Assembly: GCA_038321755.1 (NCBI GenBank)
Contig: JBBQFJ010000002.1
Coordinates: forward strand, 1-61,985
Length of the DNA stretch: 61,985 nt
Source: Acidimicrobiia bacterium
GTDB taxonomy: Bacteria; Actinomycetota; Acidimicrobiia; IMCC26256; PALSA-555
Direction of reading: 5' to 3'
The notes under the pieces are model-generated. The model was given only the letters and a program-made list of their open reading frames with translations, ran no database searches and was not told the DNA's origin. This document shows positions 5,369 to 52,371 of this stretch, piece after piece. How positions within the stretch are numbered: position 1 is the stretch's first letter; each line of letters opens with the position of its first letter. The position numbers and the translations under genes are program-made.

Positions 5369-5824
5369 ATGCGACGCTTCACGAAGCCGGCCGCGACGAC
5401 CTTGTTCGTCGTCGCACTGCTCGGCACCACGTTGGGAGTCACCGTCGGCACCGCGTCGGCCAGCGCCCCGGCCGCCAGCAAGGCCGCGTACTGCAAGGCC
5501 GTGCTGAAGGTCGGCACGGATGTCACGCCGTCGTCGAGCACCACCGTCGACAAGGCGTCGGCGAAGAGCTTCCAGAAGGCGTTCACCAAGCTGGCCAAGC
5601 TCGCGCCGACGAGTGCGATCAAGAAGCAGAACCTCACGATCGCCGCGTATTACGGAAAGCTCGCGAACGGTGACACGCCCGCGGACATCGGCTCCAAGGA
5701 AGCCGAGGCCTTCGGCAAGGCGTTCGCCAAGTTCGGCCTGTACGCCGCGACGAAGTGCATCTCGGCCGCGATCCCCGACATCACGCTTCCGGGTGGTGGG
5801 AAGGTCGAGATCCCCGGAGGCTGA
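5369..5824 (+). CDS. secreted Lys/Ala-rich hypothetical protein
   Basis: 151-aa ORF with strong GC3 bias. N-terminal signal peptide (MRRFTKPAATTLFVVALLGTTLGVTVGTASA). No recognisable domain. Confidence 0.6.
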   Translation: MRRFTKPAATTLFVVALLGTTLGVTVGTASASAPAASKAAYCKAVLKVGTDVTPSSSTTVDKASAKSFQKAFTKLAKLAPTSAIKKQNLTIAAYYGKLANGDTPADIGSKEAEAFGKAFAKFGLYAATKCISAAIPDITLPGGGKVEIPGG

Positions 5825-7588: not shown

Positions 7589-8266
7589 TCACCCGGTCGC
7601 GGCGCGCGTCAACAAGTCGTCGTAGACGGACGGATCGTCGGCATCGACGTTCGGGAAGCCGACGCCGTACGCGCCTTCCCAGTGCATCGAGATGCCGGGG
7701 TTGTGCGCGTCGGTGCCGTCGGGCAGGAACAGATGGGGACTGCCTTTGACGTCGTCGAGCATCGAGCGCCGCCATTCGTCGATGACGCGTTGGCGTGCGA
7801 CGCCGCTGTCGAAGTCGGCGGTGAGCACCGCGGCGTCGACTCCGGCGCACCCGTCGGCGATCTCGAGGATCACGTGGCGCATCGAGATGCACTGCGAGTC
7901 GGCCCAGAACGCGTGTCGCAGTGCGCGATCGAGGTTCTCGGCTGCTCGGGGACTCTGCAGGCGCGCGGCGCGCACTGCTTCCAGCGGCGGGAGCATCGTG
8001 ACCGGCCACTCCCAGTCGCGGCGCTGCCAGAGCTGCCAGCCTGCTTCGGGATCGAGACCGCCCACCACCGGCAGCTCCGCTTCGAGCATCACCTTGCGGG
8101 TGCACGACTGGTTCGAGAGCTCGAGTGGGAACGCGAGGTGCTCGAACGCGACCTGGTCCACGAACCCCAGACGCTCACGGGCGCGATGCAAACGGTGGAC
8201 CGCCAGGTGCGCCCACGGGCACCCGATGTCGGACCACACCACGATGGTTCCTTGCGGGACTTCCAT
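7589..8266 (-). CDS. DsbA/FrnE-like thioredoxin-fold protein with a CPWA (monothiol) motif
   Basis: N-terminal VVWSDIGCPWAHLAV sits where DsbA/FrnE proteins carry CPWC. Codons read TGC CCG TGG GCG. Confidence 0.7.
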   Translation of the reverse strand: MEVPQGTIVVWSDIGCPWAHLAVHRLHRARERLGFVDQVAFEHLAFPLELSNQSCTRKVMLEAELPVVGGLDPEAGWQLWQRRDWEWPVTMLPPLEAVRAARLQSPRAAENLDRALRHAFWADSQCISMRHVILEIADGCAGVDAAVLTADFDSGVARQRVIDEWRRSMLDDVKGSPHLFLPDGTDAHNPGISMHWEGAYGVGFPNVDADDPSVYDDLLTRAATG

Positions 8267-41060: not shown

Positions 41061-42182
41061 ATGTTGTCGAAGTTGGTCCTGTTGTCGAATCCCGAGTGCC
41101 CCACCGCCGCCACCTCCGCGCGGCGCGGCTTCCGGCTCCGAGCCCTGGCGGCCCTGCTCGCGCTCGCGGCCGTCGCGCTGCCCGCGATCTCGGCCGGCGC
41201 GGCCCCGGTCGATGACGCCCGGACTCAGGTCGCCGACGCCCAGCGGGCGGCCGACGCGGCCGCCGCCCGCTACGAGACGGCGATCGGCCACCTCGAGGAG
41301 CTCGACGGGAAGATCTCCGAGCTCGAGGCCCGGATCGCCGCGGGTCGGACCGAAGCTGCCGCGCTGCGCCTCCTCGCCAAAGCGCGTGCGGTGCGTGCCT
41401 ACGTCGGGCGCGACACCCTGACGGGGGGCGGGTTCATCCTCGACGGGGGTGACCCGCTCGACGAGATCCGCCGCGAGAAGCTGCTGGCCCGCACGAAGGC
41501 ACGCGACGACGCGTCCGTCGAACGGCTGCGCGTCGTCACGAGCGATCTGGACGACCAGCGCCGCGCGCTCGAGGACCGCAAGGCCGAGCAGGAGCGGGTC
41601 GTCGCGCAGGTGACGGCTGAGCAGGCCACCGTGCAGGCCCAGCTCACGACCGCGCAGCACGCGCTGGACCTGCTCGAAGAGCAGCTGCGGCAGGAGCAGG
41701 AAGCGGCGAAGGCCCGAGAGCTCGCCACCGCGGTCGCCCGCGACGCGAGCTCACGCGCGGGGAACGGCAAGGACTACTCAGGTGCGTACGTCGCGACCGG
41801 CATCGTGTGCCCGGTCCGTGGCGCGGTGTCGTTCATCGACTCCTGGGGCTTTCCCCGCCATCAGGGCCCGCACATGGGCGTCGACCTCATGGCGGCGTCG
41901 GGGACGCCCGACGTCGCGGTCGTGTCCGGCAACGTGACGTTCAAGTCGGGTGGCACGTCCGGGCTCGGCGCGTACCTCCGAGGTGATGACGGCAACCTTT
42001 ACTACTACTTCCACCTCTCTGCGTACGAGGGTGCGGCACGGCACGTCGCCCAGGGCGAGGTCATCGGGTACGTCGGGAACACGGGCGATGCGAAGTACAC
42101 CGCGTCGCACACCCACTTCGAGGTCCACCCCGGCGGCGGAGCGGCCGTGAACCCCTACCCATCGGTGCGACCAGTCTGCTGA
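41061..42182 (+). CDS. secreted M23-family peptidase with N-terminal coiled coil
   Basis: Signal peptide, long heptad-like region, HMGVDL ... GNTGDAKYTASHTHFEV. ATG 41061 (TTG 41055 is an alternative). Confidence 0.85.
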   Translation: MLSKLVLLSNPECPTAATSARRGFRLRALAALLALAAVALPAISAGAAPVDDARTQVADAQRAADAAAARYETAIGHLEELDGKISELEARIAAGRTEAAALRLLAKARAVRAYVGRDTLTGGGFILDGGDPLDEIRREKLLARTKARDDASVERLRVVTSDLDDQRRALEDRKAEQERVVAQVTAEQATVQAQLTTAQHALDLLEEQLRQEQEAAKARELATAVARDASSRAGNGKDYSGAYVATGIVCPVRGAVSFIDSWGFPRHQGPHMGVDLMAASGTPDVAVVSGNVTFKSGGTSGLGAYLRGDDGNLYYYFHLSAYEGAARHVAQGEVIGYVGNTGDAKYTASHTHFEVHPGGGAAVNPYPSVRPVC

Positions 42183-43060
42183 TCGAGCGCGCCGTCCAGG
42201 CTCGTCTCGAGTGGGACTTCGGGCGTGACGGCGCCGCGGCGGCGACCGGCGACCAGTGAGACGACGCCGAAGATGAGTGCGGCGGTGAGGACGATCGAAC
42301 CACCGGGCGCGAGATCCCACTGGCGGGCGGCGGCCAGGCCGGCCACGACCGAGACGAGGCCGACACAGACCGACAGGACGACCGTGGCTCGGAACGACCG
42401 GGCGACGAGCCGGCTGCTCGCGACGGGAAGCACCATCAGGGCGGCGATCAGGAGCACACCGACCACTCGCATCGCCGCGACGACGGTGACGGCCGTGAGC
42501 ACGGAGAGCAGCGCGTTGGCGCCATCGACCGGGATCCCCGCCACTCGGGCCGACTCCTCGTCGAGGACGATGGCGAAGAGCGCCCGACCGAAGATCGCCA
42601 TCGCCAACACGATCACGACGCCGAGCACCGCGACCACGCGGACGTCGGACGGGCTCACCGTGAGGATCGAGCCGAAAAGGTAGGGGATCACGTTCACACT
42701 GCCGCCACCGGTCCGGCTGACGAGCACAACGCCGAGGGCGATGCCGCCGTAGAAGAAGAGCGCGAGCGCGAGGTCGCCGGTCGCCCGCCCCCGAGTCCGC
42801 AGCCACTCGATTGCGAGCGCGCCGACGACGGCCACGATCAGCGCGCTCCAGACGGGCCAGACCTCGAGGAGGAGGCCCGCGGCCACACCGGCGAACGCCA
42901 TGTGGCCGATGCCGTCGCCCATGAGCGACAGCCGCTTCTGCACCAGGAACACACCGATGAGCGGCGCGCACGCGCCGACGATCAAGCCGGTCCACAGCGC
43001 GAGCTGCATGTAGTCGCGCTCGAACGGCCACGGGAGGTCGAGCACCGCGAGCACGCTCAT
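42155..43060 (-). CDS. metal ABC transporter permease (ABC-3, ZnuB/MntB type)
   Basis: Eight or more hydrophobic segments. ABC-3 family pattern (MGDGIGHMAFAG). Confidence 0.85.
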   Translation of the reverse strand: MSVLAVLDLPWPFERDYMQLALWTGLIVGACAPLIGVFLVQKRLSLMGDGIGHMAFAGVAAGLLLEVWPVWSALIVAVVGALAIEWLRTRGRATGDLALALFFYGGIALGVVLVSRTGGGSVNVIPYLFGSILTVSPSDVRVVAVLGVVIVLAMAIFGRALFAIVLDEESARVAGIPVDGANALLSVLTAVTVVAAMRVVGVLLIAALMVLPVASSRLVARSFRATVVLSVCVGLVSVVAGLAAARQWDLAPGGSIVLTAALIFGVVSLVAGRRRGAVTPEVPLETSLDGALDQQTGRTDG

Positions 43061-43070
43061 CGCACCGCGG

Positions 43071-43107
43071 CCCTCATCCGCTCGCCCTCATCCGCTCGCC
43101 CTCATCC
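43071..43107. repeat. 14-bp tandem repeat x2.6 spanning the stop codon of the ABC ATPase gene
   Basis: CCCTCATCCGCTCG x2, then a partial CCCTCATCC that contains the real stop (TCA 43102-43104, minus strand). Confidence 0.9.
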
Positions 43108-43881
43108 CAGGCCCTCGAGCCACATGGGCAAGTCGTCGCGGTGCACACCCAGGCTCACGCCGGTGGCGGTGAGCTCGTCCGGCGGGCCGTCGAAGACGAT
43201 GCGTCGCTTCATCACGATGATCCGGTCGAGGTCGTCCGCGACCGCCCCGAGCTCGTGGGAGACGAGGAGCACGGCCGCTGCGTGATCGCGCACGAGGTGG
43301 ACGAGCGAGTCGCGGAACAGCTGTTGAGACTCGACATCGACGCCGGCGATCGGTTCGTCGAGCACGAGGAGCTCCGGCTCGCTCGCGAACGCCTTCGCGA
43401 TCAGGACCCGCTGCTGCTGTCCGCCCGAGAGCTCGCGCACCGGACGGCGGCGGAGGTGGTCGAGCGCGACCGACTCGAGCGCGTGGTCCACCGCGGCGCG
43501 GTCGATGGCGGTCCCGCGTCGCCACCAGCCGCGCCGAGCGAGCCGCCCGGTCGCGACGACCTCCTCGACCGTCGCCGGGAGATCCGGTGCGAGGGTGTGG
43601 CGTTGGGGCACGTACCCGACCCGCCCGCGGTCGGGCAGTCGGCGCGGGTCGGCACCGAGGCACCGGACGGTGCCGCCGTCGGGTCGGAGGAGACCGAGGA
43701 GCAGACGGAGCAGGGTCGACTTCCCGGACCCGTTCGGGCCCACGAGGGCGGCGAACTCCCCGGGGCCGATGGCGAACGACACGTGGTCGACCGCCGGTTC
43801 CGCGCCGTAGCTGAACGTGACGTCATCCGCCGCCAGCACCGAGGCCGGGGTGGGGACGGGCACCGGGGTGGGGACGGGCAC
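43102..43881 (-). CDS. metal ABC transporter ATP-binding protein (ZnuC/MntA type)
   Basis: [23 protein letters not shown] and LLVLDEP motifs. GTG start 43881, or the duplicated GTG at 43863. Confidence 0.85.
   Translation of the reverse strand: MPVPTPVPVPTPASVLAADDVTFSYGAEPAVDHVSFAIGPGEFAALVGPNGSGKSTLLRLLLGLLRPDGGTVRCLGADPRRLPDRGRVGYVPQRHTLAPDLPATVEEVVATGRLARRGWWRRGTAIDRAAVDHALESVALDHLRRRPVRELSGGQQQRVLIAKAFASEPELLVLDEPIAGVDVESQQLFRDSLVHLVRDHAAAVLLVSHELGAVADDLDRIIVMKRRIVFDGPPDELTATGVSLGVHRDDLPMWLEGLG
43845..43880. repeat. 18-bp tandem duplication x2 covering the start-codon region of the ABC ATPase gene
   Basis: CCGGGGTGGGGACGGGCA x2 on the plus strand. On the minus strand this gives GTGCCCGTCCCCACCCCG twice (VPVPTP VPVPTP), each with a GTG. 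Confidence 0.9.
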
Positions 43882-43921
43882 CGAGCAATCGTACGTCCGG
43901 ATGGCACGAAAGAGGGAACGG

Positions 43922-43942
43922 TAATAAGATTGATTCTCATGA
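43922..43942. promoter_or_regulatory. AT-rich Zur-box-like element overlapping the substrate-binding-protein start codon
   Basis: TAAGATTGATTCTCA matches the actinobacterial Zur core TGAAAATGATTTTCA at 11 of 15 positions. It is the only AT-rich patch locally. It contains a TAAGAT -10-like hexamer 8 nt before the ATG. Confidence 0.4.
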
Positions 43943-44886
43943 ACCTTCCGAAGCGCACGTCGGGTCTGGTCGCGCCGGCTGCCGCGCTCGCGGCCCTGCT
44001 GCTGCTCGCCACCGGTGCTGCCGGAGCCACGGCGCCGAGTGCGGCGACGCGCACCGACGTGGTCGCCGCGTTCTACCCGCTGGCGTTCGTGGCGTCGGCC
44101 GTCGGCGGGAGGTACGTCGATGTCTCGAACCTCACGCCACCGGGCGTCGAGCCGCACGACCTCGAGCTCACGCCTGATGAGGTCGACGCACTGCAGGACG
44201 CGGGCCTCGTGATCGTCATGGGGAAGGGCTTCCAGCCCGCGGTCGAGAAGGTCGCGGGGGAGCGCGACCGGGGCACGCTCGAGGTGCTCAGGCGGTTGCC
44301 GATCGACAGCCCGGGTAAGCGGGTCGCGAACGAGGGCGAAGCGAACGGTCGTGCCCTCGACCCGCACGTGTGGCTCGACCCCGTGCTCATGGGCAAGTTG
44401 GTCGGGGAGGTCCGCGGCGCGCTCGCGAAGGTTGACCCGGCGCGCGAAACGGCGTTCGACGCGAACGCGGCGAAGCTCCAGACGAAGCTCGCCGCGCTCG
44501 ACGCCGAGTACCGCGCCGGCCTCGCGACGTGTCAGCGCGACCTCATCGTCACCTCGCACGAAGCGTTCGGCTACCTCGCCGGTCGGTACGGCCTCCGGCA
44601 GGAGGGGATCTCCGGGCTCGCACCCGACGCCGAGCCGAGCGCGAAGCGCCTCGGCGAGCTCAGCGACCTCGCCGCCCGGAAAGGCGTCACCACGATCTTC
44701 ACCGAGGAGCTGGTGTCACCGAAGGTCGCGGAGACGCTGGCCCGTGAGGCCGGTGGCTTGCGCGTCGCCGTGCTGAACCCGCTCGAAGGCCTGACCGACC
44801 GCGACGTGCGCCGCGGCGACGACTACTTCGCCGTGATGCGGGCCAACCTTCGCAAGATCCAGCGCGCGCTCGGCTGCACCACCTGA
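43939..44886 (+). CDS. metal ABC transporter substrate-binding protein (TroA/ZnuA/MntC cluster-9 type)
   Basis: Signal peptide. DPHVWLDP and SHEAFGYL motifs. Confidence 0.85.
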   Translation: MNLPKRTSGLVAPAAALAALLLLATGAAGATAPSAATRTDVVAAFYPLAFVASAVGGRYVDVSNLTPPGVEPHDLELTPDEVDALQDAGLVIVMGKGFQPAVEKVAGERDRGTLEVLRRLPIDSPGKRVANEGEANGRALDPHVWLDPVLMGKLVGEVRGALAKVDPARETAFDANAAKLQTKLAALDAEYRAGLATCQRDLIVTSHEAFGYLAGRYGLRQEGISGLAPDAEPSAKRLGELSDLAARKGVTTIFTEELVSPKVAETLAREAGGLRVAVLNPLEGLTDRDVRRGDDYFAVMRANLRKIQRALGCTT

Positions 44887-44916
44887 GTGGGGGCCGCGGT
44901 CGCGGGCGGCGACGGC

Positions 44917-45381
44917 TCAGTCGGCGTTCGCGACCCTCGTGCCCACACCGACGCGTGGGGCGGGGAAGTCACCGTCTGGCCGTTGGATCCAGCGCTCCAC
45001 GCCCACCTCGCAGCTCTGGATCACCTTCCACGAGAGCACGCGCTTGGTCGGTGGTGCCGTGAACGAGATCGCGAAGGCGCTCGTTGCGCCTGAGGGCATC
45101 GAGCTGCCTGAGAACGTGATCGTCCTCGCGGTCGCCGTGGTCTGCCAGCCGTCCTTGGGCTCGGCCGTTGCGTTCTTCACTCCACGGGGCACGCGGAACC
45201 GCATGCTGATGATCGGCGAGACCTCGCATCCGTGCTCGGGGGTGAAGCCGACGGTGACCGTCTTCCCCGGCTTGACGCTGCTCGGGTCCGGTTCGACGTG
45301 GGCGCCCGCGGGGATCGCGGTCACCAGCAGCGCGCCGGCTCCGATGGCTGCAGCGATGACTGCTCGTCGAAGTCGGTGCAT
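44917..45381 (-). CDS. YcnI-like (DUF1775) secreted copper-binding protein
   Basis: The signal peptide ends ...IPAGA/HVEPDP, giving an N-terminal His in the mature protein. DGWQ motif and size are typical of DUF1775. Confidence 0.7.
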   Translation of the reverse strand: MHRLRRAVIAAAIGAGALLVTAIPAGAHVEPDPSSVKPGKTVTVGFTPEHGCEVSPIISMRFRVPRGVKNATAEPKDGWQTTATARTITFSGSSMPSGATSAFAISFTAPPTKRVLSWKVIQSCEVGVERWIQRPDGDFPAPRVGVGTRVANAD

Positions 45382-45441
45382 GGAGGTGCTCCTCGGGTTC
45401 GGCCGGCCGTGAACGGCATCGTGAGGTAGTCGCTCGTTCTC

Positions 45442-46476
45442 ATGCCCTGGTTCCCGCTGACCTGGTCCGGCAGTGCGGTGCCGGCAGTGCGGCCCGGCCT
45501 GGTGAAGCCCGACCGTGGGAAGATCGCTCCCGACGGGCATCGGAATCGATCGAGGCGCGAAGTGGGAGCTGGGCACGACCACGGGCATCCGACCGGCGTG
45601 CTTGGAGCGCGTCGCCGGGCCCTGTGGATCGCACTCGGTGCCAACGCCGCCTTCCTCGTGGTCGAGGTCGGCGCAGCCATCGCGTTCGGGTCGCTGGCGC
45701 TGCTCGCCGACGGTGTCCACATGATCTCCGACGTCGCGGCACTCGGGATCGCACTCGTCGCCCAGCAGCTCGCAACCGCTCGCGCCTCGTCGCGCCACAC
45801 GTACGGACTCGTGCGGGCCGAGGTCATCGGCGCCCAGGTGAACGCCGTCCTGCTGTTGGCCGCCGCCGTCTACATCGTGATCGAGGCGATCGGTCGCCTC
45901 GACGACCCGGGCACGATCAACGGTGCCGGCGTGATGGTGGTCGCCGCCGTGGGCCTCGTCGTCAACGTGGGGAGCGCGTGGGTGATCGCGCGGACCGCGG
46001 GCGCGAGTCTCAACATGAGGGGAGCGTTCTGGCATCTCGTCGGCGACGCACTCGGGTCACTCGGTGCGCTGATCGCGGGCGCCGCGGTCGTGCTGTTCGG
46101 TGCCGAATGGCTCGACCCGGTCATCTCGCTGTTCATCGCCGCGCTCGTGGTCGTCTCCGCGCTCGCGCTGCTCCGCGACGTCGGACGGGTCCTGCTCGAA
46201 GGTGTGCCCTCGGGGCTGCAGGTCGACGAGGTCGAGGCCGCGCTCGCGGGGAGCAACGGTGTCGAGGCGGTGCACCACCTGCATCTCTGGTCGCTCGGCT
46301 CCGAGACCCCCGCCCTGTCGGCGCACGTCGTGCTGACGGGTGAGCCGTCACTGCACGAGGCCCAGACCCGCGGCGACGTTCTCAAGGAGATGCTCGTCGA
46401 TCGGTTCGGGATCGCGCACGCAACGCTCGAGCTCGAGTGCCATGACTGTGGGGCCGAGCACGGCCCGCACGCCTGA
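45442..46476 (+). CDS. cation diffusion facilitator (CzcD/ZitB-like) exporter
   Basis: HDHGH N-terminal tract, LLADGVHMISD and HLWSL motifs. The true start may be GTG 45562. Confidence 0.85.
   Translation: MPWFPLTWSGSAVPAVRPGLVKPDRGKIAPDGHRNRSRREVGAGHDHGHPTGVLGARRRALWIALGANAAFLVVEVGAAIAFGSLALLADGVHMISDVAALGIALVAQQLATARASSRHTYGLVRAEVIGAQVNAVLLLAAAVYIVIEAIGRLDDPGTINGAGVMVVAAVGLVVNVGSAWVIARTAGASLNMRGAFWHLVGDALGSLGALIAGAAVVLFGAEWLDPVISLFIAALVVVSALALLRDVGRVLLEGVPSGLQVDEVEAALAGSNGVEAVHHLHLWSLGSETPALSAHVVLTGEPSLHEAQTRGDVLKEMLVDRFGIAHATLELECHDCGAEHGPHA
45467..45494. repeat. 14-bp tandem duplication x2
   Basis: CCGGCAGTGCGGTG CCGGCAGTGCGGCC, in the YcnI/CDF divergent region or the extreme 5' end of the CDF ORF. 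Confidence 0.9.
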
Positions 46477-46478
46477 CC

Positions 46479-47672
46479 TCAGTCCGGCGTCACCTGACCG
46501 GTCGGGCTCGGCACGGACGGCGTCGAGCGAGTCAGTCGACGGCGTGGTGGGCGATCGGGGCGAAGACGCAGGGCGCCGGCCACTGCGAGACCGAGGCCGA
46601 GGCCGAGCGCCAAGGTGACCGTCAGCCGGGCCACGGCCGGCGACAGGGTGGTCGGCAGCTGTGACTTGGTGAGCACGGTGATGTCGGCGAGCCCGCCCGC
46701 GAGCACGACGAACAGCCCCGCGATGAGGACGAGGGGTGCAGCCGCGCTCAGCCCGCGCCGGACCAACCAGATGAGCGCGAGTACGGCGACGACGATCCCC
46801 CCGAGCGCGTAGACGCTGGCGGCGAGCTTCGTCCCACCGCTCACCGTCGTCGCACCCCACCCGCCGACCACGTGCAGCGTCTCGCTCAGTGCGACCACCA
46901 CCAGGGTGGTGCCGATGGCGATCGACGCGAAGCGGCTGCGGCTCAGGGCGACGATCGTCAGCGCGAGCACGACGGCTGCGGCGATCCACGGCCAGGGCGA
47001 CGGTCCGGGCACCCACCGGACGTCGCCCCGCACCGAGATCGTCCCGGCGCTCCGACGGAGCTGGACCTCGAAGCGCTGGACCAGGTGGGGTGACGCCGGG
47101 TCGGTCTGGACCACCGGCGCTTCGCCGCTCCCCATCCAGTGCGCACGGTGGTCGTGCCATCGGGCGGTCGTGCCGTCGGACAGCTTGTGCCACTCCGGGG
47201 TCGCCTCGGGATCGGCGATCTTCGGGACCGGCGCGGAGGCCGTTCCGTTCCTGGTGCGGTTGAGGTACACGGCCGGGGAGCGGCGGTTCTCGAAGACGCC
47301 GCGCGGACCGACCCGCAGGTACGGCTCGTCGTCGTAGCCCACGACGGTCACATCGGCGTCGCTGGTGTTGCGCAGCTCCAGCCGGTTGCCGAGGTCGACC
47401 GCGCTCACGTGGATCCCCCGCACGGCCGGGCGAACCGAGAGCACGCGCGTCTCGTAGTTGCTGGGGCGGACGCCACCGATCCCGTGCGCGTCGGCTCGAT
47501 CGGGTGAGACGACGACGGCCGCAATCCCGAGCAGCACCGCCACCGCGCCGATGCGGCCGACGGTCCTCAGGAAGCCGCCCGTCCTCGAGCCGCCGGTCAG
47601 GGAGCCGCCGGTCAGCGAGCCGCCGGTCAGGGAGCCGCCGGTCAGGGAGCCGCCGGTCAGTGAGAAGGTCAT
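46479..47672 (-). CDS. uncharacterised polytopic membrane protein with His-rich extracytoplasmic domain
   Basis: ATGA overlap with the ECF sigma stop. (GGSLT)n N-terminus, signal-like segment ...SPDRADA/HGIGG, WHDHRAHW motif, then about 5 hydrophobic segments. No family recognised. Confidence 0.65.
   Translation of the reverse strand: MTFSLTGGSLTGGSLTGGSLTGGSLTGGSRTGGFLRTVGRIGAVAVLLGIAAVVVSPDRADAHGIGGVRPSNYETRVLSVRPAVRGIHVSAVDLGNRLELRNTSDADVTVVGYDDEPYLRVGPRGVFENRRSPAVYLNRTRNGTASAPVPKIADPEATPEWHKLSDGTTARWHDHRAHWMGSGEAPVVQTDPASPHLVQRFEVQLRRSAGTISVRGDVRWVPGPSPWPWIAAAVVLALTIVALSRSRFASIAIGTTLVVVALSETLHVVGGWGATTVSGGTKLAASVYALGGIVVAVLALIWLVRRGLSAAAPLVLIAGLFVVLAGGLADITVLTKSQLPTTLSPAVARLTVTLALGLGLGLAVAGALRLRPDRPPRRRLTRSTPSVPSPTGQVTPD
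47574..47663. repeat. 15-bp in-frame tandem repeat x6 (5 good + 1 degenerate)
   Basis: GCCGCCGGTCAG(G/C/T)GA units on the plus strand. They encode GGSLT repeats at the N-terminus of the 46479-47672 ORF. Confidence 0.95.
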
Positions 47673-48202
47673 CCCGCTTCTTCGGCCGCACGCAGCGCGT
47701 CGATCAGGTCGCCGCGTGCACGCGCCACGCGGGAACGGATCGTGCCGACGGGAACACCACACACGGACGCGGCCTCTTCGTAGGAGGCGCCGACGAGCTG
47801 CGTGAGCACGAACGCCTCCCGGCGCTCGGGCCTGAGCCCAGCGACGAGTGCGTCGAGCGCGTGCGCTGCAGATTCGTCAGGCGTCGTGGCGCCATCAGTG
47901 CCGGCCTCGAGTCGCATCCGCCCGTCGAGGCGTCGTCGCCGGCCGCGAGCGCGCAGCGAGTCGGCGCACGCGCGCCGTGCGATCGTGAGCAACCAGGTGC
48001 GCGCACTTGCGTCGGCTCGGTAGGCCGCGAGCGCCCGCCACGCGCGGACGTACACGTCCTGCGTGACATCGTCCGCTTCCGACGGATCGGTGAGGTGCGC
48101 GACGAGACGCCACACTTCGCCCTGGCTCTGGCGCACGAAGGCACCGAGGGCGAGGCGGTCGCCGTCGCGGGCCGCTACGGCCAGCCGCGTGAGCTCATCC
48201 AC
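47669..48202 (-). CDS. ECF-type RNA polymerase sigma factor
   Basis: Region 2 (DVTQDVYVRAWRAL) and region 4 (SYEEAASVCGVPVGTIRSRVARAR). GTG start 48202. Confidence 0.85.
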   Translation of the reverse strand: MDELTRLAVAARDGDRLALGAFVRQSQGEVWRLVAHLTDPSEADDVTQDVYVRAWRALAAYRADASARTWLLTIARRACADSLRARGRRRRLDGRMRLEAGTDGATTPDESAAHALDALVAGLRPERREAFVLTQLVGASYEEAASVCGVPVGTIRSRVARARGDLIDALRAAEEAG

Positions 48203-48256
48203 CGTCGACCGACGATACTGGGGAACCTCGGGCCGCCAGGAGTCGACTACCTGACC

Positions 48257-48880
48257 ATGGACTGTGAACGAACCAGGATCGAGATATCGGCGCGGCTCGA
48301 CGGCGAGGCGCCGAGCGCGCCGTCGGAGGCCGTCGCCACCCACCTCAGCATGTGCGCCCCGTGCCGTGCGTACGAGCTGGAGGCGACCGCGCTGCACCGC
48401 CAGGTGCGAGTCGCACGGGCGCCCGAGGTGCCGGACCTCACCGCCCGCATCCTCAGTGCCATCGGCGCGACGGAGCCGACGCCCGCGCCCAGCCATCTCG
48501 ATGCGTGGCGCCTCGGGCTCGCGTTCATCGGTGTCGTCCAGATCGGCCTCGGCGTGCCCGCGCTCCTCTTCGGCGCCGACGCCGGCCTGCCGGTGCACAC
48601 CGCTCGCCATCTCGGGTCCTTCGCCATCGCGCTCGCGGTCGGCTTCCTCTTCGCGGCGTGGCGGCCGAGCCGGGTGGCCGGGCTCTTCCCCGTCGCGGCG
48701 GCGTTGGTGGCCTGCCTCGTCTTCACCTCGATCGTCGACATCGCGAGCGGACGAGCCGCGCCGGGAGGGGAGCTCGGCCATGTGACCGAGCTCTTGGGTC
48801 TCGCGCTGCTCTGGCTCGTCCGGCGCTCGGCGCCCGACGAGGCTTCCGACGTGCGCGCGGTCGCACTGGGGCCGGCGTGA
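48257..48880 (+). CDS. zf-HC2 anti-sigma factor, polytopic membrane type
   Basis: N-terminal HLSMCAPC (H-x3-C-x2-C) followed by about 4 TM segments. Divergent from the sigma gene. Confidence 0.7.
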   Translation: MDCERTRIEISARLDGEAPSAPSEAVATHLSMCAPCRAYELEATALHRQVRVARAPEVPDLTARILSAIGATEPTPAPSHLDAWRLGLAFIGVVQIGLGVPALLFGADAGLPVHTARHLGSFAIALAVGFLFAAWRPSRVAGLFPVAAALVACLVFTSIVDIASGRAAPGGELGHVTELLGLALLWLVRRSAPDEASDVRAVALGPA

Positions 48881-50715
48881 TGCTCCGTCGTGCATTCGCG
48901 GTGCTCGCGCTCGCGGGGGGCATGGTGCTCCTCGTCGCGTCGCCCGCGTTCGCGCACGCCGAGCTCCTCGAGTCGAACCCGGCTCCCGGCGCGGTGCTGG
49001 TCAGTTCGCCGGCGAACATCACCTTGAACTTCACCGAGTCGGTCCGCGCCGACAACGGCGGGATCCGCGTCTTCGACACGGACGGTGAGCGGGTCGACAA
49101 GGGCGGCACGAAGACGTCGGGCGCCACCGTTCGCCTTCCCGTCCCGAAGCTCGACGACGGTTCCTACATCGTCACGTGGCGGGTGATCTCATCGGACTCC
49201 CACCCGATCCAGGGCGCGTTCACCTTCCAGGTCGGCGCCGGCGGTGGACCGGCCGCGACGAGTCGTGAGGTCACCGGCCTCGCGACGAAGCTCCTCGGCC
49301 AGCAGGGCGGCGACGCGGTCGTCGGTGCCGTGTACGGCGTCGTGCGTGGGCTCGTGTTCGCGGCCCTCGCGATCCTCATCGGGGGCGCGTTCTTCGTCGC
49401 GCTCGTCTCGCCCCGCGCGCGCACGTCGAAGCTGGCGCGACGCATCATCGGGTTCGGGTGGCTGTTGACCTTCGCGGCGACGATCGCCGGGTTGTTGCTC
49501 TACGGCCCGTACGTCTCGGGCCTCGGGCTCGGCGACTCCTTCTCGTCGAGCCTGCTCGACCAGACGGTCGGCGAGCGCTTCGGGCAGATGTGGCTCGCGC
49601 GCATCGTCATCCTGTTGTTGATCGCACCGCTCCTCCGGTTGCTCTTCCGCGCTCCCCGAGATGACGCTGCTGCGGTGGGTGCAGCGGCTGAGGGCGAGCC
49701 CTCTCCCCTTCCGACGTGGTGGTACGGCGTCGGCGGTCTGGCCGCCGTCGCGCTCGCGTCGACCCCCGGTCTGTCCGGCCACGCGATCTCCGGCGACTGG
49801 GTCACGGCTGCGGTCGTCGCGGACACGCTGCACGTGTTGGCGATGGCGGTCTGGCTCGGCGGCCTGGTCATCCTCGCGGCCGTGACGCTCCGGAGTCGCG
49901 CGATGGAGCAGATCCGAGCCGCCGTCCCGCGCTTCTCGCGTGTCGCGCTCACGTGCGTGATCGTCCTGGTCGGTACCGGCGCGTTCCAGACCTACCGACA
50001 GGTCGGCAGCCTCGACGCGCTCCGGAGCACCGACTACGGGCGCATCCTGGCGGTCAAGCTCGTGCTCTTCGCGGCAGTGATCGTCTTCGCCGCGTTCAGC
50101 CGTGAGGTCGTGTTCCGCCTCTTCGGCGAGTACGAGACTGCGCCGCCGCAGGTCCCGGCTGTGGCCGGCGGGTCGGACGACGACCAGGTCCCCGCGACTG
50201 CCGGCGACGAATCGTCCGACGGCGGCGCGCTCGATGACGAGTACTACGAGATCGACGAAGAGGTCGAGCTCCGCCACCTCCGTCGCTCGGTGTGGGCGGA
50301 GGCGATCCTCATGGTCGGCGTGCTCGTCGTCACCGCGCTGCTCGTGAACGCGGCTCCGGCGAAGACCGCGTTGGCCGATACGGCCGACGGCGGTGCGGTC
50401 GGCGTCACGATGAAGTCGAAGAAGGTCTGGGTCGACTTCACCGCGACCCCGGGCACGAAGGGCACCAACGAGATCCACGTCAACACGCTGAACCCCGCGG
50501 GTGCCCCGCTCGACGTCCAGGACCTCACCGTCACGATCGCGCTCCCCGAGAGCAAGATCGCTCCGATCACCATGCCGCTCCGGCGACTCAGCCCGGGCCA
50601 CTACTACGCGCCGGCGTTCGACGTCCCGCTCGAGGGTGACTGGCGCGTCACCGCGAACCCATTGGTCTCGGAGTTCGAGCAACCCACCTTGCGCGGCACG
50701 GTGACCTTCGGCTGA
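48880..50715 (+). CDS. CopC-CopD fusion protein with YtkA/FixH-like C-terminal domain
   Basis: Signal ...SPAFA/HAELLESNPAPGA (CopC N-terminal His). SDSHPIQG. Multi-TM CopD body. C-terminal beta-sandwich-like domain. Start overlaps the anti-sigma stop (GTGATG). Confidence 0.85.
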   Translation: MLRRAFAVLALAGGMVLLVASPAFAHAELLESNPAPGAVLVSSPANITLNFTESVRADNGGIRVFDTDGERVDKGGTKTSGATVRLPVPKLDDGSYIVTWRVISSDSHPIQGAFTFQVGAGGGPAATSREVTGLATKLLGQQGGDAVVGAVYGVVRGLVFAALAILIGGAFFVALVSPRARTSKLARRIIGFGWLLTFAATIAGLLLYGPYVSGLGLGDSFSSSLLDQTVGERFGQMWLARIVILLLIAPLLRLLFRAPRDDAAAVGAAAEGEPSPLPTWWYGVGGLAAVALASTPGLSGHAISGDWVTAAVVADTLHVLAMAVWLGGLVILAAVTLRSRAMEQIRAAVPRFSRVALTCVIVLVGTGAFQTYRQVGSLDALRSTDYGRILAVKLVLFAAVIVFAAFSREVVFRLFGEYETAPPQVPAVAGGSDDDQVPATAGDESSDGGALDDEYYEIDEEVELRHLRRSVWAEAILMVGVLVVTALLVNAAPAKTALADTADGGAVGVTMKSKKVWVDFTATPGTKGTNEIHVNTLNPAGAPLDVQDLTVTIALPESKIAPITMPLRRLSPGHYYAPAFDVPLEGDWRVTANPLVSEFEQPTLRGTVTFG

Positions 50716-50717
50716 GG

Positions 50718-51287
50718 ATGAGCACCGACACCGCCAACACGCTGTTCACCGCACTTACGTTCGTCGCGAACGTTGCCTTCCTCGCGCTCGCCCTCGTCGG
50801 GATCGCCGCACTCGTCTCGTCCGCAGGTCGGCGCCTCGCGGGGCGCGTGGTCGTGAGGCTGGGTCCGTACGCTCGGGGCGCGGCGGCGGCGGTCGCCGTC
50901 GTCACGATGCTCGGGAGCCTCTACTACTCGGAGATCGCCGGGTTCCTCCCGTGCGAGCTGTGCTGGTACCAGCGCATACTCATGTACCCGCTCTCGGCGA
51001 TCCTCGTCATCGGGGCGTTGCGTCGTGATCGCGGCGTGGTCTGGTACGCAGCGCCGTTCGTGGCTGTCGGCGCACCGCTGGCGCTCTACCACTGGCTCGT
51101 CGAACGTGTGCCGTCGTTCGCGGAGAGCACGTCGTGCTCGGTGCTCGTGCCGTGCGCGATTCCATACTTCGAGGAACTCGGGTACCTCACTCTGGCGTTC
51201 ATGGACATGAGTGCCTTTTTGCTGATCGGCGCCCTGCTCGTCATCGACTGGCGAGCGCATCGGGGAGCCAAGGAGACCACGACATGA
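50718..51287 (+). CDS. DsbB/BdbC-like disulfide bond formation protein
   Basis: PCELCWYQRILMYP motif, 4 TM segments and a second Cys pair (STSCSVLVPC). Confidence 0.75.
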   Translation: MSTDTANTLFTALTFVANVAFLALALVGIAALVSSAGRRLAGRVVVRLGPYARGAAAAVAVVTMLGSLYYSEIAGFLPCELCWYQRILMYPLSAILVIGALRRDRGVVWYAAPFVAVGAPLALYHWLVERVPSFAESTSCSVLVPCAIPYFEELGYLTLAFMDMSAFLLIGALLVIDWRAHRGAKETTT

Positions 51288-51916
51288 CTCGACGAATCAC
51301 TCGATTGGCGACGTTGGGTCTGGTGATCGCCGCGATGGTGGCCATCGCCGCGGTTCCCGCATCGGCCAAGAGCACGAAGACCGAGGTGAGCAAGAAGGTC
51401 GTGGTCAGCGGTGCCGCGCTCGCGACCTCGGACGCGGTGGGCACCTCCAAGGACCCGGCGATCGGCAAGACCGGGCCCACGCTCAGCGGGCAAGGTTTCG
51501 ACGGCATGAAGGTCAGGATCGGCGGGACGTCCGAGCACGGCCGTGTACTCATCTTCGTCGCGCACTGGTGCCCGCACTGCCAGGCCGAGGTCCCCAAGAT
51601 CGTGAAGCTCGCGAAGCAAGGCAAGCTCGCAGGGATCGACCTCCAGACGATCGCGACCGACACGAACAAGGAGCTCCCGAACTACCCGCCCTCGAAGTGG
51701 CTCTCCCGGGAGAAGTGGCCCTTCACGCCAGTGCTCGCCGACGACGCGAAGGACTCGGCCCTGCAGGCATACGGCGGGACGAGCTTTCCGTTCTTCGTGC
51801 TCCTGGACGCGAACAACAAGGTCGTCGTCCGGACCAGCGGTGAGATCCCGCCGGCCGCACTCGCACAAGCGGTGAAGAACCTCGCGGCAGGGAAGCCGGT
51901 CTTCGGCTCGAACTAG
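51284..51916 (+). CDS. TlpA/ResA-like membrane-anchored thioredoxin
   Basis: FVAHWCPHCQAE motif and an N-terminal anchor. ATGA overlap with the DsbB-like gene. Confidence 0.8.
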   Translation: MTRRITRLATLGLVIAAMVAIAAVPASAKSTKTEVSKKVVVSGAALATSDAVGTSKDPAIGKTGPTLSGQGFDGMKVRIGGTSEHGRVLIFVAHWCPHCQAEVPKIVKLAKQGKLAGIDLQTIATDTNKELPNYPPSKWLSREKWPFTPVLADDAKDSALQAYGGTSFPFFVLLDANNKVVVRTSGEIPPAALAQAVKNLAAGKPVFGSN

Positions 51917-52371
51917 GAGCAGTCGCGGCAGCGACCGACGAGGTCGATGCGATGGTGCTCGGTCGTGAAGCCCGTCGCGCGGTCGATCTCGGACACGGCG
52001 GCGTGCAGCGACGCCTCCAACCCGGCTGACGCCGGCACATCCTCGACGGCTCCGCAGGACGAGCACACGAGGTGGTGGTGGTGGTCGCCGGTGAGGTCCT
52101 CGGCGAGCTCGAACCTTGCGTGCTCGTCGTTCGTGACGAGGCGATGCACGACTCCAGCCTGCTCGAGGACGACGAGGTTGCGGTAGACGCTGCTCTGGGC
52201 GAGCCCGCCGCGCTCGTCGAGGATCTCGGGGATCGTGAGCGGACGTGTCGCATCGCGCAGCACGTCGACGAGCGCAGAACGGTTTCCGGTCATGCGTTGG
52301 TTGACCCGCCGGAGCCGGACCGCGACCTGCTGTTCCAGCGGCTCGGGACCCTCGGGTACCCGGGCGCGCAC
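51913..52371 (-). CDS. Fur-family metalloregulator (Zur-like)
   Basis: Winged helix (RSALVDVLRD...PLTIPEIL), HHHHLVCSSCG and CRDC motifs. Start is GTG 52371 or ATG 52293. Its stop shares CTAG with the tlpA-like stop. Confidence 0.8.
   Translation of the reverse strand: MRARVPEGPEPLEQQVAVRLRRVNQRMTGNRSALVDVLRDATRPLTIPEILDERGGLAQSSVYRNLVVLEQAGVVHRLVTNDEHARFELAEDLTGDHHHHLVCSSCGAVEDVPASAGLEASLHAAVSEIDRATGFTTEHHRIDLVGRCRDCS

Follow-up and report, generated by a model that had tools for sequence, protein, structure and literature searches.

An unnamed protein family linked to CopC-CopD copper importers in Actinomycetota

The target gene and its product

We analysed a stretch of 61,985 nucleotides from an Acidimicrobiia bacterium (GenBank assembly GCA_038321755.1, contig JBBQFJ010000002.1, positions 1 to 61,985 of the forward strand), hereafter called the window, and focused on one open reading frame of its minus strand, which we call the target. 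Its product belongs to a new family, with no described relatives, within a known kind of system: the copper genes associated with CopC-CopD (CopCD) importers. The target is a real gene, since a word-indexed search returned 1,118 homologues at E<=1e-3; they go by the name 'hypothetical', with no precomputed Pfam domain in any of them. The ATG start codon of the target and the TGA stop codon of the preceding extracytoplasmic function (ECF) sigma factor gene form an ATGA overlap (GCG GGA TGA / ATG ACC TTC; ...GCGGGATGACCTTC...) that had been described in an earlier account of this DNA made without database searches (the sequence-only reading) and that we confirm in the sequence. The target has the following parts.

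46479..47672, minus strand: the target open reading frame, 397 residues plus stop, with leader, beta-sandwich ectodomain, five membrane helices and basic C-terminal tail
47487..47672, minus strand: leader (residues 1-62), with a long n-region, a hydrophobic helix (32-55) and a c-region SPDRADA with Ala at -3 and -1
47567-47664, minus strand: 15-bp tandem repeat, 6.5 copies, encoding (GGSLT)n in the leader n-region and private to the lineage
46995..47486, minus strand: ectodomain (residues 63-226, ~164 residues), starting at His63, predicted as an Ig-like beta-sandwich; no other part of the protein is as conserved in the family
47136..47159, minus strand: motif W172-H-D-H-R-A-H-W179, in which W172, H173, D174 and R176 are general and H175 and H178 lineage-specific
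46566..46994, minus strand: five-helix membrane domain (residues 227-369), with conserved E264, H267, D330, S337-Q338 and R349 near the predicted outer helix ends

We measured conservation in 113 representatives of the family sharing no more than ~50% pairwise identity. At the junction between leader and mature protein, these have P at -4 in 93% of the cases, A at -3 in 96%, A at -1 in 98%, and H at +1 (H63 in the target) in 96%. We count this histidine behind an AxA motif as the foremost conserved feature of the family. The hydrophobic segment ending in SPDRADA/HG, singled out by the sequence-only reading, is there in the target, and the conservation of the junction suggests that the leader is probably removed by signal peptidase I. 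The same account listed a GGSLT repeat. The repeat is indeed there, but it is not conserved: it was found in no homologue aligned, and the closest relative (L091, 90% identical) has the leader MRALLRTIARIG, without the repeat, and a GTGA overlap with its sigma gene. The array is therefore a private expansion within the leader n-region, and its position in a stretch that is probably cleaved off may explain why it is tolerated. There is no cysteine anywhere in the target.

Predicted fold and topology

The AlphaFold2 model of the full-length target, made with 26 homologues, has a mean predicted local distance difference test score (pLDDT) of 83 and a predicted template modelling score (pTM) of 0.75. 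It consists of the leader helix (32-55), a low-confidence linker (56-62), a beta-sandwich (73-220), and five membrane helices (227-244, 249-274, 279-306, 308-334, and 345-369), in agreement with the earlier estimate of about five. Most blocks of the sandwich have pLDDT >85, and the ectodomain modelled by itself produces the same sandwich (pLDDT 82.5). The predicted inside parts are rich in lysine and arginine (RSRF, ...VRR, and six such residues in the tail), against 0-1 in the outside loops, and this positive-inside pattern places the sandwich outside and the C-terminus inside. The extracytoplasmic domain proposed earlier is thus present, even if it covers ~164 residues and not ~190. The predicted cytoplasmic parts amount to ~4-residue loops and a basic tail of 28 residues, and neither a cytoplasmic anti-sigma domain that could bind sigma regions 2 and 4 nor a match to zf-HC2 was found in the target by Pfam scan and topology.

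Some members of the family are short (224-257 residues; P0507, P0509, P0513, P0527) and are made of the ectodomain followed by a single C-terminal anchor helix. They keep both the AxA/H junction and the motif, as WHDHRIHW. The existence of the ectodomain alone, with one anchor, indicates that it is an autonomous module. One short form (L092 7001-7759), which its source labels MYXO-CTERM, lies between two unannotated genes, with no copper genes nearby.

Foldseek searches of the PDB with the full-length model gave nothing significant (best E>=0.017, TM score ~0.2). A likeness to pentameric ligand-gated channels at this level is a superficial one, between proteins that combine a beta-sandwich with a helical bundle, and we discarded it. 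With the ectodomain only, the top PDB match was a generic Ig-like protein, DUF3244, with a non-significant E of 0.09; CopC was not among these matches, and the best lytic polysaccharide monooxygenase (LPMO), GbpA (2xwx_A), came with E 0.6 and a TM score of 0.17, which does not support an LPMO fold. The sequence-only reading had called the mature N-terminus histidine-brace-like. This label derives from the sequence and not from the predicted structure, and no fold likeness to CopC, YcnI, PCuAC, or LPMO emerged from the Foldseek and hhalign comparisons.

Extent of the family and search for relatives

An exhaustive profile search of 1.84 billion cluster representatives identified at least 2,910 clusters (at 50% identity) with E<=1e-3, including 878 with E<=1e-30. 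The members with a named source come from Acidimicrobiia metagenome-assembled genomes, essentially all Micromonospora, Plantactinospora, Melissospora, Cryptosporangium, Parafrankia, one Streptomyces sp. (NCBI label), and Euzebya, and the family thus spans the phylum Actinomycetota.

The earlier statement that the protein could not be placed in any family stands after a much broader search. The target has no match in Pfam-A and NCBIfam at E<=10, and a Pfam scan of the 113 diverse members returned scattered chance matches only (Ribosomal_L39, Acyl_transf_3, and similar). Searches of PDB sequences, with the single sequence or a profile, gave no true match: the one to eL39 is spurious and stems from the basic and aromatic stretch WHDHRxHW. 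A full-text literature search for the motif WHDHR produced nothing relevant. No confident homology to a characterised non-metal family, such as would have spoken against the metal-binding role put forward earlier, turned up in Pfam, NCBIfam, PDB sequences, or Foldseek searches of the PDB.

We then compared profiles with the most obvious candidates. The ectodomain aligned by hhalign to the CopC domains (PF04234) of neighbouring genes has a probability of 0.2-0.7%. For YcnI (DUF1775, PF07987) there is no Pfam match and the hhalign probability is 0.1-0.2%. The membrane domain compared with 54 CopD domains (PF05425) has a probability of 1.7%. Profiles of YtkA/FixH-like domains built from the neighbouring genes were also negative (probability <=1.7%).

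A few annotations and gene calls in the family were set aside. The NCBI name 'phage holin family protein' of the homologue P0008 is unsupported. Three long homologues (P0013, P0016, P0045) are read-through or merged gene calls and not true fusions: P0013 and P0016 read through into an antisense frame of a cation diffusion facilitator (CDF) gene, and P0045 merges the sigma factor with the target.

Conserved residues and candidate metal site

The ectodomain is on average more conserved than the membrane domain (mean conservation of 0.55 vs 0.42). Among the 113 representatives, N129 and W161 are invariant, and G112, Y113, and S132 (99%), L119 (98%), N138 and P150 (97%), and E116 and Y118 (96%) are nearly so. 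The tryptophan-flanked motif is also highly conserved, with W172 at 96%, H173 at 88%, D174 at 96%, H175 at 89%, R176 at 98%, and H178 at 88%; a further histidine, H196, is found in 70%. The membrane domain has R349 in 99% of the sequences, D330 in 72%, E/D264 in 65%, and H267 in 59%. Judging by the helix limits of the model, all the conserved residues of this domain would lie at the outer ends of the helices.

The sequence-only reading had noted an N-terminal histidine and an H-x-H-x2-H cluster. Both are present (H173-D-H175-R-A-H178 for the latter), but the cluster is not a constant of the family, in which only H63 and H173 are general. In one subfamily, which we call the Arg-variant subfamily, WRDRRRW stands in place of WHDHRxHW, and H173, H175, and H178 are replaced jointly by Arg or Gln, which suggests that they form one shared site. 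In Micromonospora, only H173 is kept of the three, with WHDQRALW in 65 of 119 sequences. The conservation pattern suggests that H63, H173, and D174 are the general candidate ligands, a set that matches the composition of a histidine brace.

Gene neighbourhoods

The target lies next to genes for copper import and their putative regulators, and the copper island that had been recognised around it is borne out by the CopC-CopD and DUF1775/YcnI neighbours. The features of the window that matter here are the following.

44917..45381, minus strand: YcnI-like DUF1775 protein, with leader ...PAGA/H
45428-45454, minus strand: second ECF-type motif GGAAC-N17-CGACT, 46 nt upstream of the YcnI start
47669..48202, minus strand: SigC-like ECF sigma factor (Sigma70_r2 and r4_2), likely GTG start at 48202, stop overlapping the target start
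48203..48256, between the strands: divergent control region of 54 bp, the strongly conserved spacer from sigma to anti-sigma
48257..48880, plus strand: zf-HC2 (ZAS) membrane anti-sigma factor, with a conserved outer loop DAGLPVHTARHxGSF
48880..50715, plus strand: YcnJ-type CopC-CopD with a FixH/YtkA-like C-terminal domain
50718..51287, plus strand: DsbB-family disulfide oxidoreductase, in the same operon as CopC-CopD
51284..51916, plus strand: secreted thioredoxin-fold protein (Redoxin, ResA/MauD-like)
51913..52350, minus strand: Fur-family regulator; in loci without the CopCD cassette it immediately precedes sigma-target or the target, in the same direction

The FixH/YtkA-like end of CopC-CopD (window 50470-50660, residues about 530-593) gives it the three-domain layout of YcnJ and not the two-domain layout of CopCD. 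A ZitB-like CDF gene, on the plus strand, separates the YcnI-like gene from the target. More generally, ZnuABC-type transporter genes and the ZitB-like CDF gene (within 42155-46476) on one side, and the Fur-family gene (51913-52350) on the other, flank the copper module.

To place this arrangement in context, we collected 74 related loci of Acidimicrobiia from GTDB species representatives with sufficient upstream sequence. Four of their organisations are listed below.

33/74 loci: full divergent arrangement, as in the window
17/74 loci: CopCD divergent from the target, no sigma or anti-sigma
8/74 loci: Fur, sigma, and target, in this order, no anti-sigma or CopCD nearby
6/74 loci: Fur followed by the target

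The coupling to the sigma factor reported by the sequence-only reading is real but optional. The sigma gene adjoins the target in 43 of the 74 loci, and in Micromonospora the target lies in the sigma operon; elsewhere, sigma and anti-sigma were lost repeatedly. Deletion scars make this visible: in L025 (about 7830-8000) and in P0010, the target leader is joined, in frame, to what is left of the sigma gene, its first 16 codons (MDELTR..AARDGDR), which indicates that sigma and anti-sigma were lost secondarily and the target retained. The sequences thus point to repeated deletion of the sigma/anti-sigma pair while the target stays. The steadier partner is the YcnJ-type CopC-CopD importer, which lies at most 8 kb from the target in 53 of the 74 loci and is divergent and adjacent in 50.

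The association with CopCD is not restricted to Acidimicrobiia. We found it in Micromonosporaceae, in an assembly with the NCBI-labelled Streptomyces sp. protein, and in the Arg-variant subfamily. In Micromonosporaceae, the importer and the anti-sigma are divergent from an operon of sigma and target (YcnI<-CopCD<-anti-sigma <-> sigma->MauE->DsbA->target), and Plantactinospora has this order minus sigma and anti-sigma. In L093 (1886-8516), a YcnI-domain protein of 516 residues, a Dyp peroxidase, CopCD, the target, and a cupredoxin follow each other, and the target start overlaps the CopCD stop; this is an unusually complete copper-trafficking cluster. A paralogue locus, L075 (4651-7699), has the order target->YcnI->CopCD. 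Upstream of these genes, it encodes a different ECF sigma factor (SigM/SigE-like) and the zf-HC2 anti-sigma that belongs to it, together with a cytochrome c-like protein, a YCPYC-motif protein, and DsbB. Arg-variant members close a long CopCD operon (L089 1035-8131; L090 881-8074), which reads: unknown protein, CopCD, unknown proteins, Rce1-like protease, Peripla_BP_6, unknown protein, and target. Beside CopCD, the recurrent neighbours are YcnI, a disulfide-forming pair and, in some lineages, Dyp peroxidase and cupredoxin, over at least three actinobacterial lineages that are only distantly related. Two members of the family are fusions: P0139 has a sixth helix followed by a YtkA-like domain (hhalign E 9e-5, probability 59%), and in P0247 the sequence runs on into a Dyp peroxidase with a Tat signal. 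Only in Acidimicrobiia does the target have Fur, Znu, and CDF neighbours, a linkage that most likely reflects inherited gene order there.

Promoter motifs and the sigma/anti-sigma pair

The divergent control region carries, on the plus strand (48222-48248), an ECF-type promoter GGAAC-N17-CGACT that ends 8 nt before the anti-sigma ATG. The conserved form of this motif on the anti-sigma strand is GGGAAC-N16-(T/C)CGACTAC-N5-6-ATG. We found GGGAAC-N16-CGACTAC upstream of the anti-sigma gene in 40 loci, and a near-identical motif in Micromonospora and Plantactinospora. In the window, at L087 (5049-5156), and at L088 (about 5500-5560), it ends 5-8 nt before the anti-sigma ATG. We read it as the putative -35/-10 pair of an ECF-type promoter; its conservation from Acidimicrobiia to Micromonosporaceae at 5-8 nt from the ATG suggests that the anti-sigma-CopCD transcripts are leaderless or near-leaderless. 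An ECF-type motif also precedes YcnI in 9 loci (the window and 8 others), suggesting that YcnI is probably in the same regulon. The one of the window (45428-45454) falls within the 5' end of the listed CDF open reading frame, whose true start is probably further downstream. Since about one match to the ECF-type motif is expected by chance in the window alone, the weight of this observation rests on its positional conservation.

The sigma strand is different. It has a conserved element, CCAGTATCGTCG (48210-48221), with TATCGT, a TAnnnT -10-like hexamer, ending 9 nt before the sigma GTG. Even loci that have lost the sigma gene retain the element ahead of the target, and their GGGAAC has decayed. 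Comparison of the conserved spacer and of the motifs across loci revealed no ECF-type motif ahead of sigma-target, and a scan of 46300-48500 for E. coli-type promoters and terminators found nothing. From this distribution, sigma-target appears to be outside ECF control, while the importer genes appear to be under it.

The sigma factor of the window scores 157 bits with the NCBIfam model PRK12535 and 138 with SigC, those of Micromonospora 166 and 162, and the next model ~77-87. All these scores are below the curated NCBIfam cut-offs (219 for SigC), so that membership of SigC cannot be claimed on this basis, but SigC still ranks second among the models, far ahead of the third. Copper limitation in M. 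tuberculosis has been linked to SigC, whose gene is reportedly free of auto-regulation there and lacks a known anti-sigma (PMC7924339); SigC has also been connected with the copper-deprivation response of C. glutamicum (PMC7337898). The absence of an ECF motif before the sigma gene studied here fits this SigC-type (ECF36) behaviour (PMC7924339, PMC7337898). In contrast, sigC of M. tuberculosis is monocistronic, whereas here there is a divergent ZAS anti-sigma and a co-transcribed target. The anti-sigma has four predicted membrane helices, the conserved outer loop listed above, and an E..H motif; loop and motif together make up a candidate site for the sensing of metal by the anti-sigma itself.

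Comparison with known systems

YcnI is a membrane-tethered Cu(II) chaperone encoded in the ycnKJI operon of B. subtilis (PMC8424229, PMC12362106). As is predicted for the target, it is a secreted beta-rich domain, tethered to the membrane, with a mature N-terminal histidine right after the leader; both genes are beside a CopC-CopD importer. Of the known proteins, the target would work most like YcnI or the CopC part of YcnJ. The single-anchor members of our family share this overall layout, which also resembles actinobacterial CopC. However, most members have a five-helix domain where YcnI has one anchor helix, and the sequences and profiles are unrelated, as shown above. Because a true YcnI is encoded separately at the same loci, the two proteins are not substitutes. 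The parallel with YcnJ concerns the order of the domains, as both have an outside domain of the copper-binding type starting with histidine (by prediction in the target), then a polytopic membrane domain and sometimes a C-terminal YtkA-like domain, and they share operons (PMC13344008). Yet the domains of the target are unrelated to CopC and CopD, its five helices contrast with the larger CopD domain, and its polar residues are only at the outer face.

The likeness to histidine-brace proteins (LPMO; X325/Bim1-type; CopC) lies in an N-terminal histidine, as predicted after leader cleavage, and a second conserved histidine on a beta-sandwich. It stops there, since the fold is unmatched (see GbpA above) and no catalytic role is indicated for the target. 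Bim1, a brace protein tethered to the membrane, is used in copper import when the metal is limiting, and the resemblance of the target to it would be by function only.

A putative copper-binding partner of CopCD

We tentatively conclude, with a probability of about 0.45, that the target represents an unnamed family of Actinomycetota proteins acting as membrane-tethered extracytoplasmic Cu(II)-binding partners of the YcnJ-type CopCD importer, a conclusion that builds on the anatomy of the protein, its pattern of conservation, its gene linkage, and the distribution of the promoter motifs. The protein would be exported by Sec and its leader cut after P-A-x-A, leaving His63 as the N-terminus of the Ig-like beta-sandwich of ~164 residues on the outer face of the five-helix domain. 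The free amino group and the imidazole of His63 would bind Cu(II) together with His173, with probable additions by His175, His178, and His196 in the lineage of the window. The target could then capture copper and hand it off to the CopC domain of CopCD, to YcnI, or to both, much as YcnI serves YcnJ in Bacillus subtilis. There, the CopC domain of YcnJ receives its Cu(II) from YcnI (PMC12362106), and YcnJ supports haem-copper respiratory oxidases under copper starvation (PMC13344008). As to regulation, sigma and target may be co-produced from the conserved non-ECF promoter and ensure a basal supply, and the anti-sigma-CopCD-DsbB-thioredoxin operon and YcnI, under the conserved ECF-type promoter, would provide an inducible one, the signal presumably being copper limitation.

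Several observations weigh against this reading. The N-terminal residues, on which the proposed site depends, are modelled with low confidence both in the full-length protein and in the ectodomain alone (pLDDT <50 for residues 56-62 and for ectodomain residues 1-7). H175 and H178 are missing in Micromonospora and H173 is an arginine in one subfamily, which makes the ligand set uncertain. Neither the fold nor the profiles resemble CopC, YcnI, CopD, YtkA, or LPMO. In 14 of the 74 loci, Fur (sometimes sigma) adjoins the target and there is no CopCD within 8 kb, and zinc-type genes are present in the window. Finally, the five-helix domain exceeds what is needed for an anchor and is left unexplained by a copper hand-off.

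An alternative is that the protein is a copper sensor of the ECF pathway, with the ectodomain reporting copper occupancy and the five-helix domain controlling the ZAS anti-sigma, and thereby the activity of the SigC-like sigma factor. We regard this as possible but unlikely. It would fit with the translational coupling of the target to sigma in the 43 loci mentioned above, its place in the sigma operon of Micromonospora, and the persistence of the sigma-target pair in 8 loci without anti-sigma or CopCD nearby. Sigma-target also lacks the ECF-type promoter of the output genes, as expected of sensing components that must be in place beforehand. The conserved polar residues gather at the outer membrane face, the ZAS anti-sigma has almost no outside domain, and no sensor of SigC is known (PMC7924339). 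However, the target is kept in at least 23 of the 74 loci without adjacent sigma or anti-sigma, as well as in Plantactinospora, L093, L089, and L090, and the scars show that it was retained when sigma was lost. It has no cytoplasmic domain able to bind sigma, and the anti-sigma bears its own conserved histidine-containing outer loop and E..H motif. The fusions with YtkA-like and Dyp domains and the single-anchor forms are also better suited to copper handling than to sensing. The broader proposal that the target is the missing copper sensor of SigC-type ECF signalling in Actinobacteria, with a new domain akin to a histidine brace that would report copper occupancy and control the ZAS anti-sigma by way of the five helices, in a three-part pathway inducing CopCD and YcnI at copper shortage, is for us slightly more doubtful still.

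We find it somewhat less likely again that the target is a copper-dependent or redox enzyme or a transporter, i.e., a membrane cupric reductase or oxidase preparing copper for CopD, or an independent five-helix importer. An N-terminal histidine on a beta-sandwich is also a mark of oxidative histidine-brace enzymes (PMC10952591), the succession of outside domain, membrane domain, and occasional YtkA-like domain parallels YcnJ (PMC13344008), and there is a steady linkage to thiol-disulfide oxidoreductases and Dyp peroxidase. The membrane domain also conserves E/D264, H267, D330, and R349. Its conserved residues are, however, only at the outer helix ends, with no evident polar path across the membrane. 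The protein lacks Cys or Met motifs for Cu(I), its one partly conserved membrane histidine (59%) is too little for haem-based electron transfer, and it resembles neither CopD (1.7% by hhalign), nor a solved transporter, nor an LPMO. The single-anchor forms do without the membrane domain altogether.

A role in the homeostasis of zinc or another metal under the neighbouring Fur-family regulator, with the copper genes adjacent through inherited order only, is very improbable. In its favour, a histidine-rich site could bind zinc, the Fur-family gene is directly upstream and co-directional in 14 loci without CopCD, and the window shares with many loci of Acidimicrobiia the presence of ZnuABC-type and ZitB-like CDF genes on the flanks of the target. 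But outside Acidimicrobiia these neighbours vanish while CopCD, YcnI, and sigma/anti-sigma stay, other lineages show translational coupling between the target and CopCD or DsbA, and the Fur-family protein fits no specific Zur model well (28 bits for a cutoff of 167).

Implications for copper acquisition in Actinobacteria

The import of copper by bacteria is far less understood than its export, and roles were given to CopCD/YcnJ and YcnI only recently. For Actinobacteria, M. tuberculosis among them, the way in which SigC serves to sense a shortage of copper is still an open question (PMC7924339). The family described here, which counts thousands of sequence clusters, includes culturable genera such as Micromonospora, and carries the label hypothetical in all annotations, probably supplies a missing part of the acquisition or sensing of scarce copper. 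Its characterisation could add a new type of copper-binding domain and explain a step in the delivery of copper to respiratory oxidases. With a SigC-like sigma factor, a ZAS anti-sigma, and a defined promoter, it could also give a tractable model of signalling under copper limitation.

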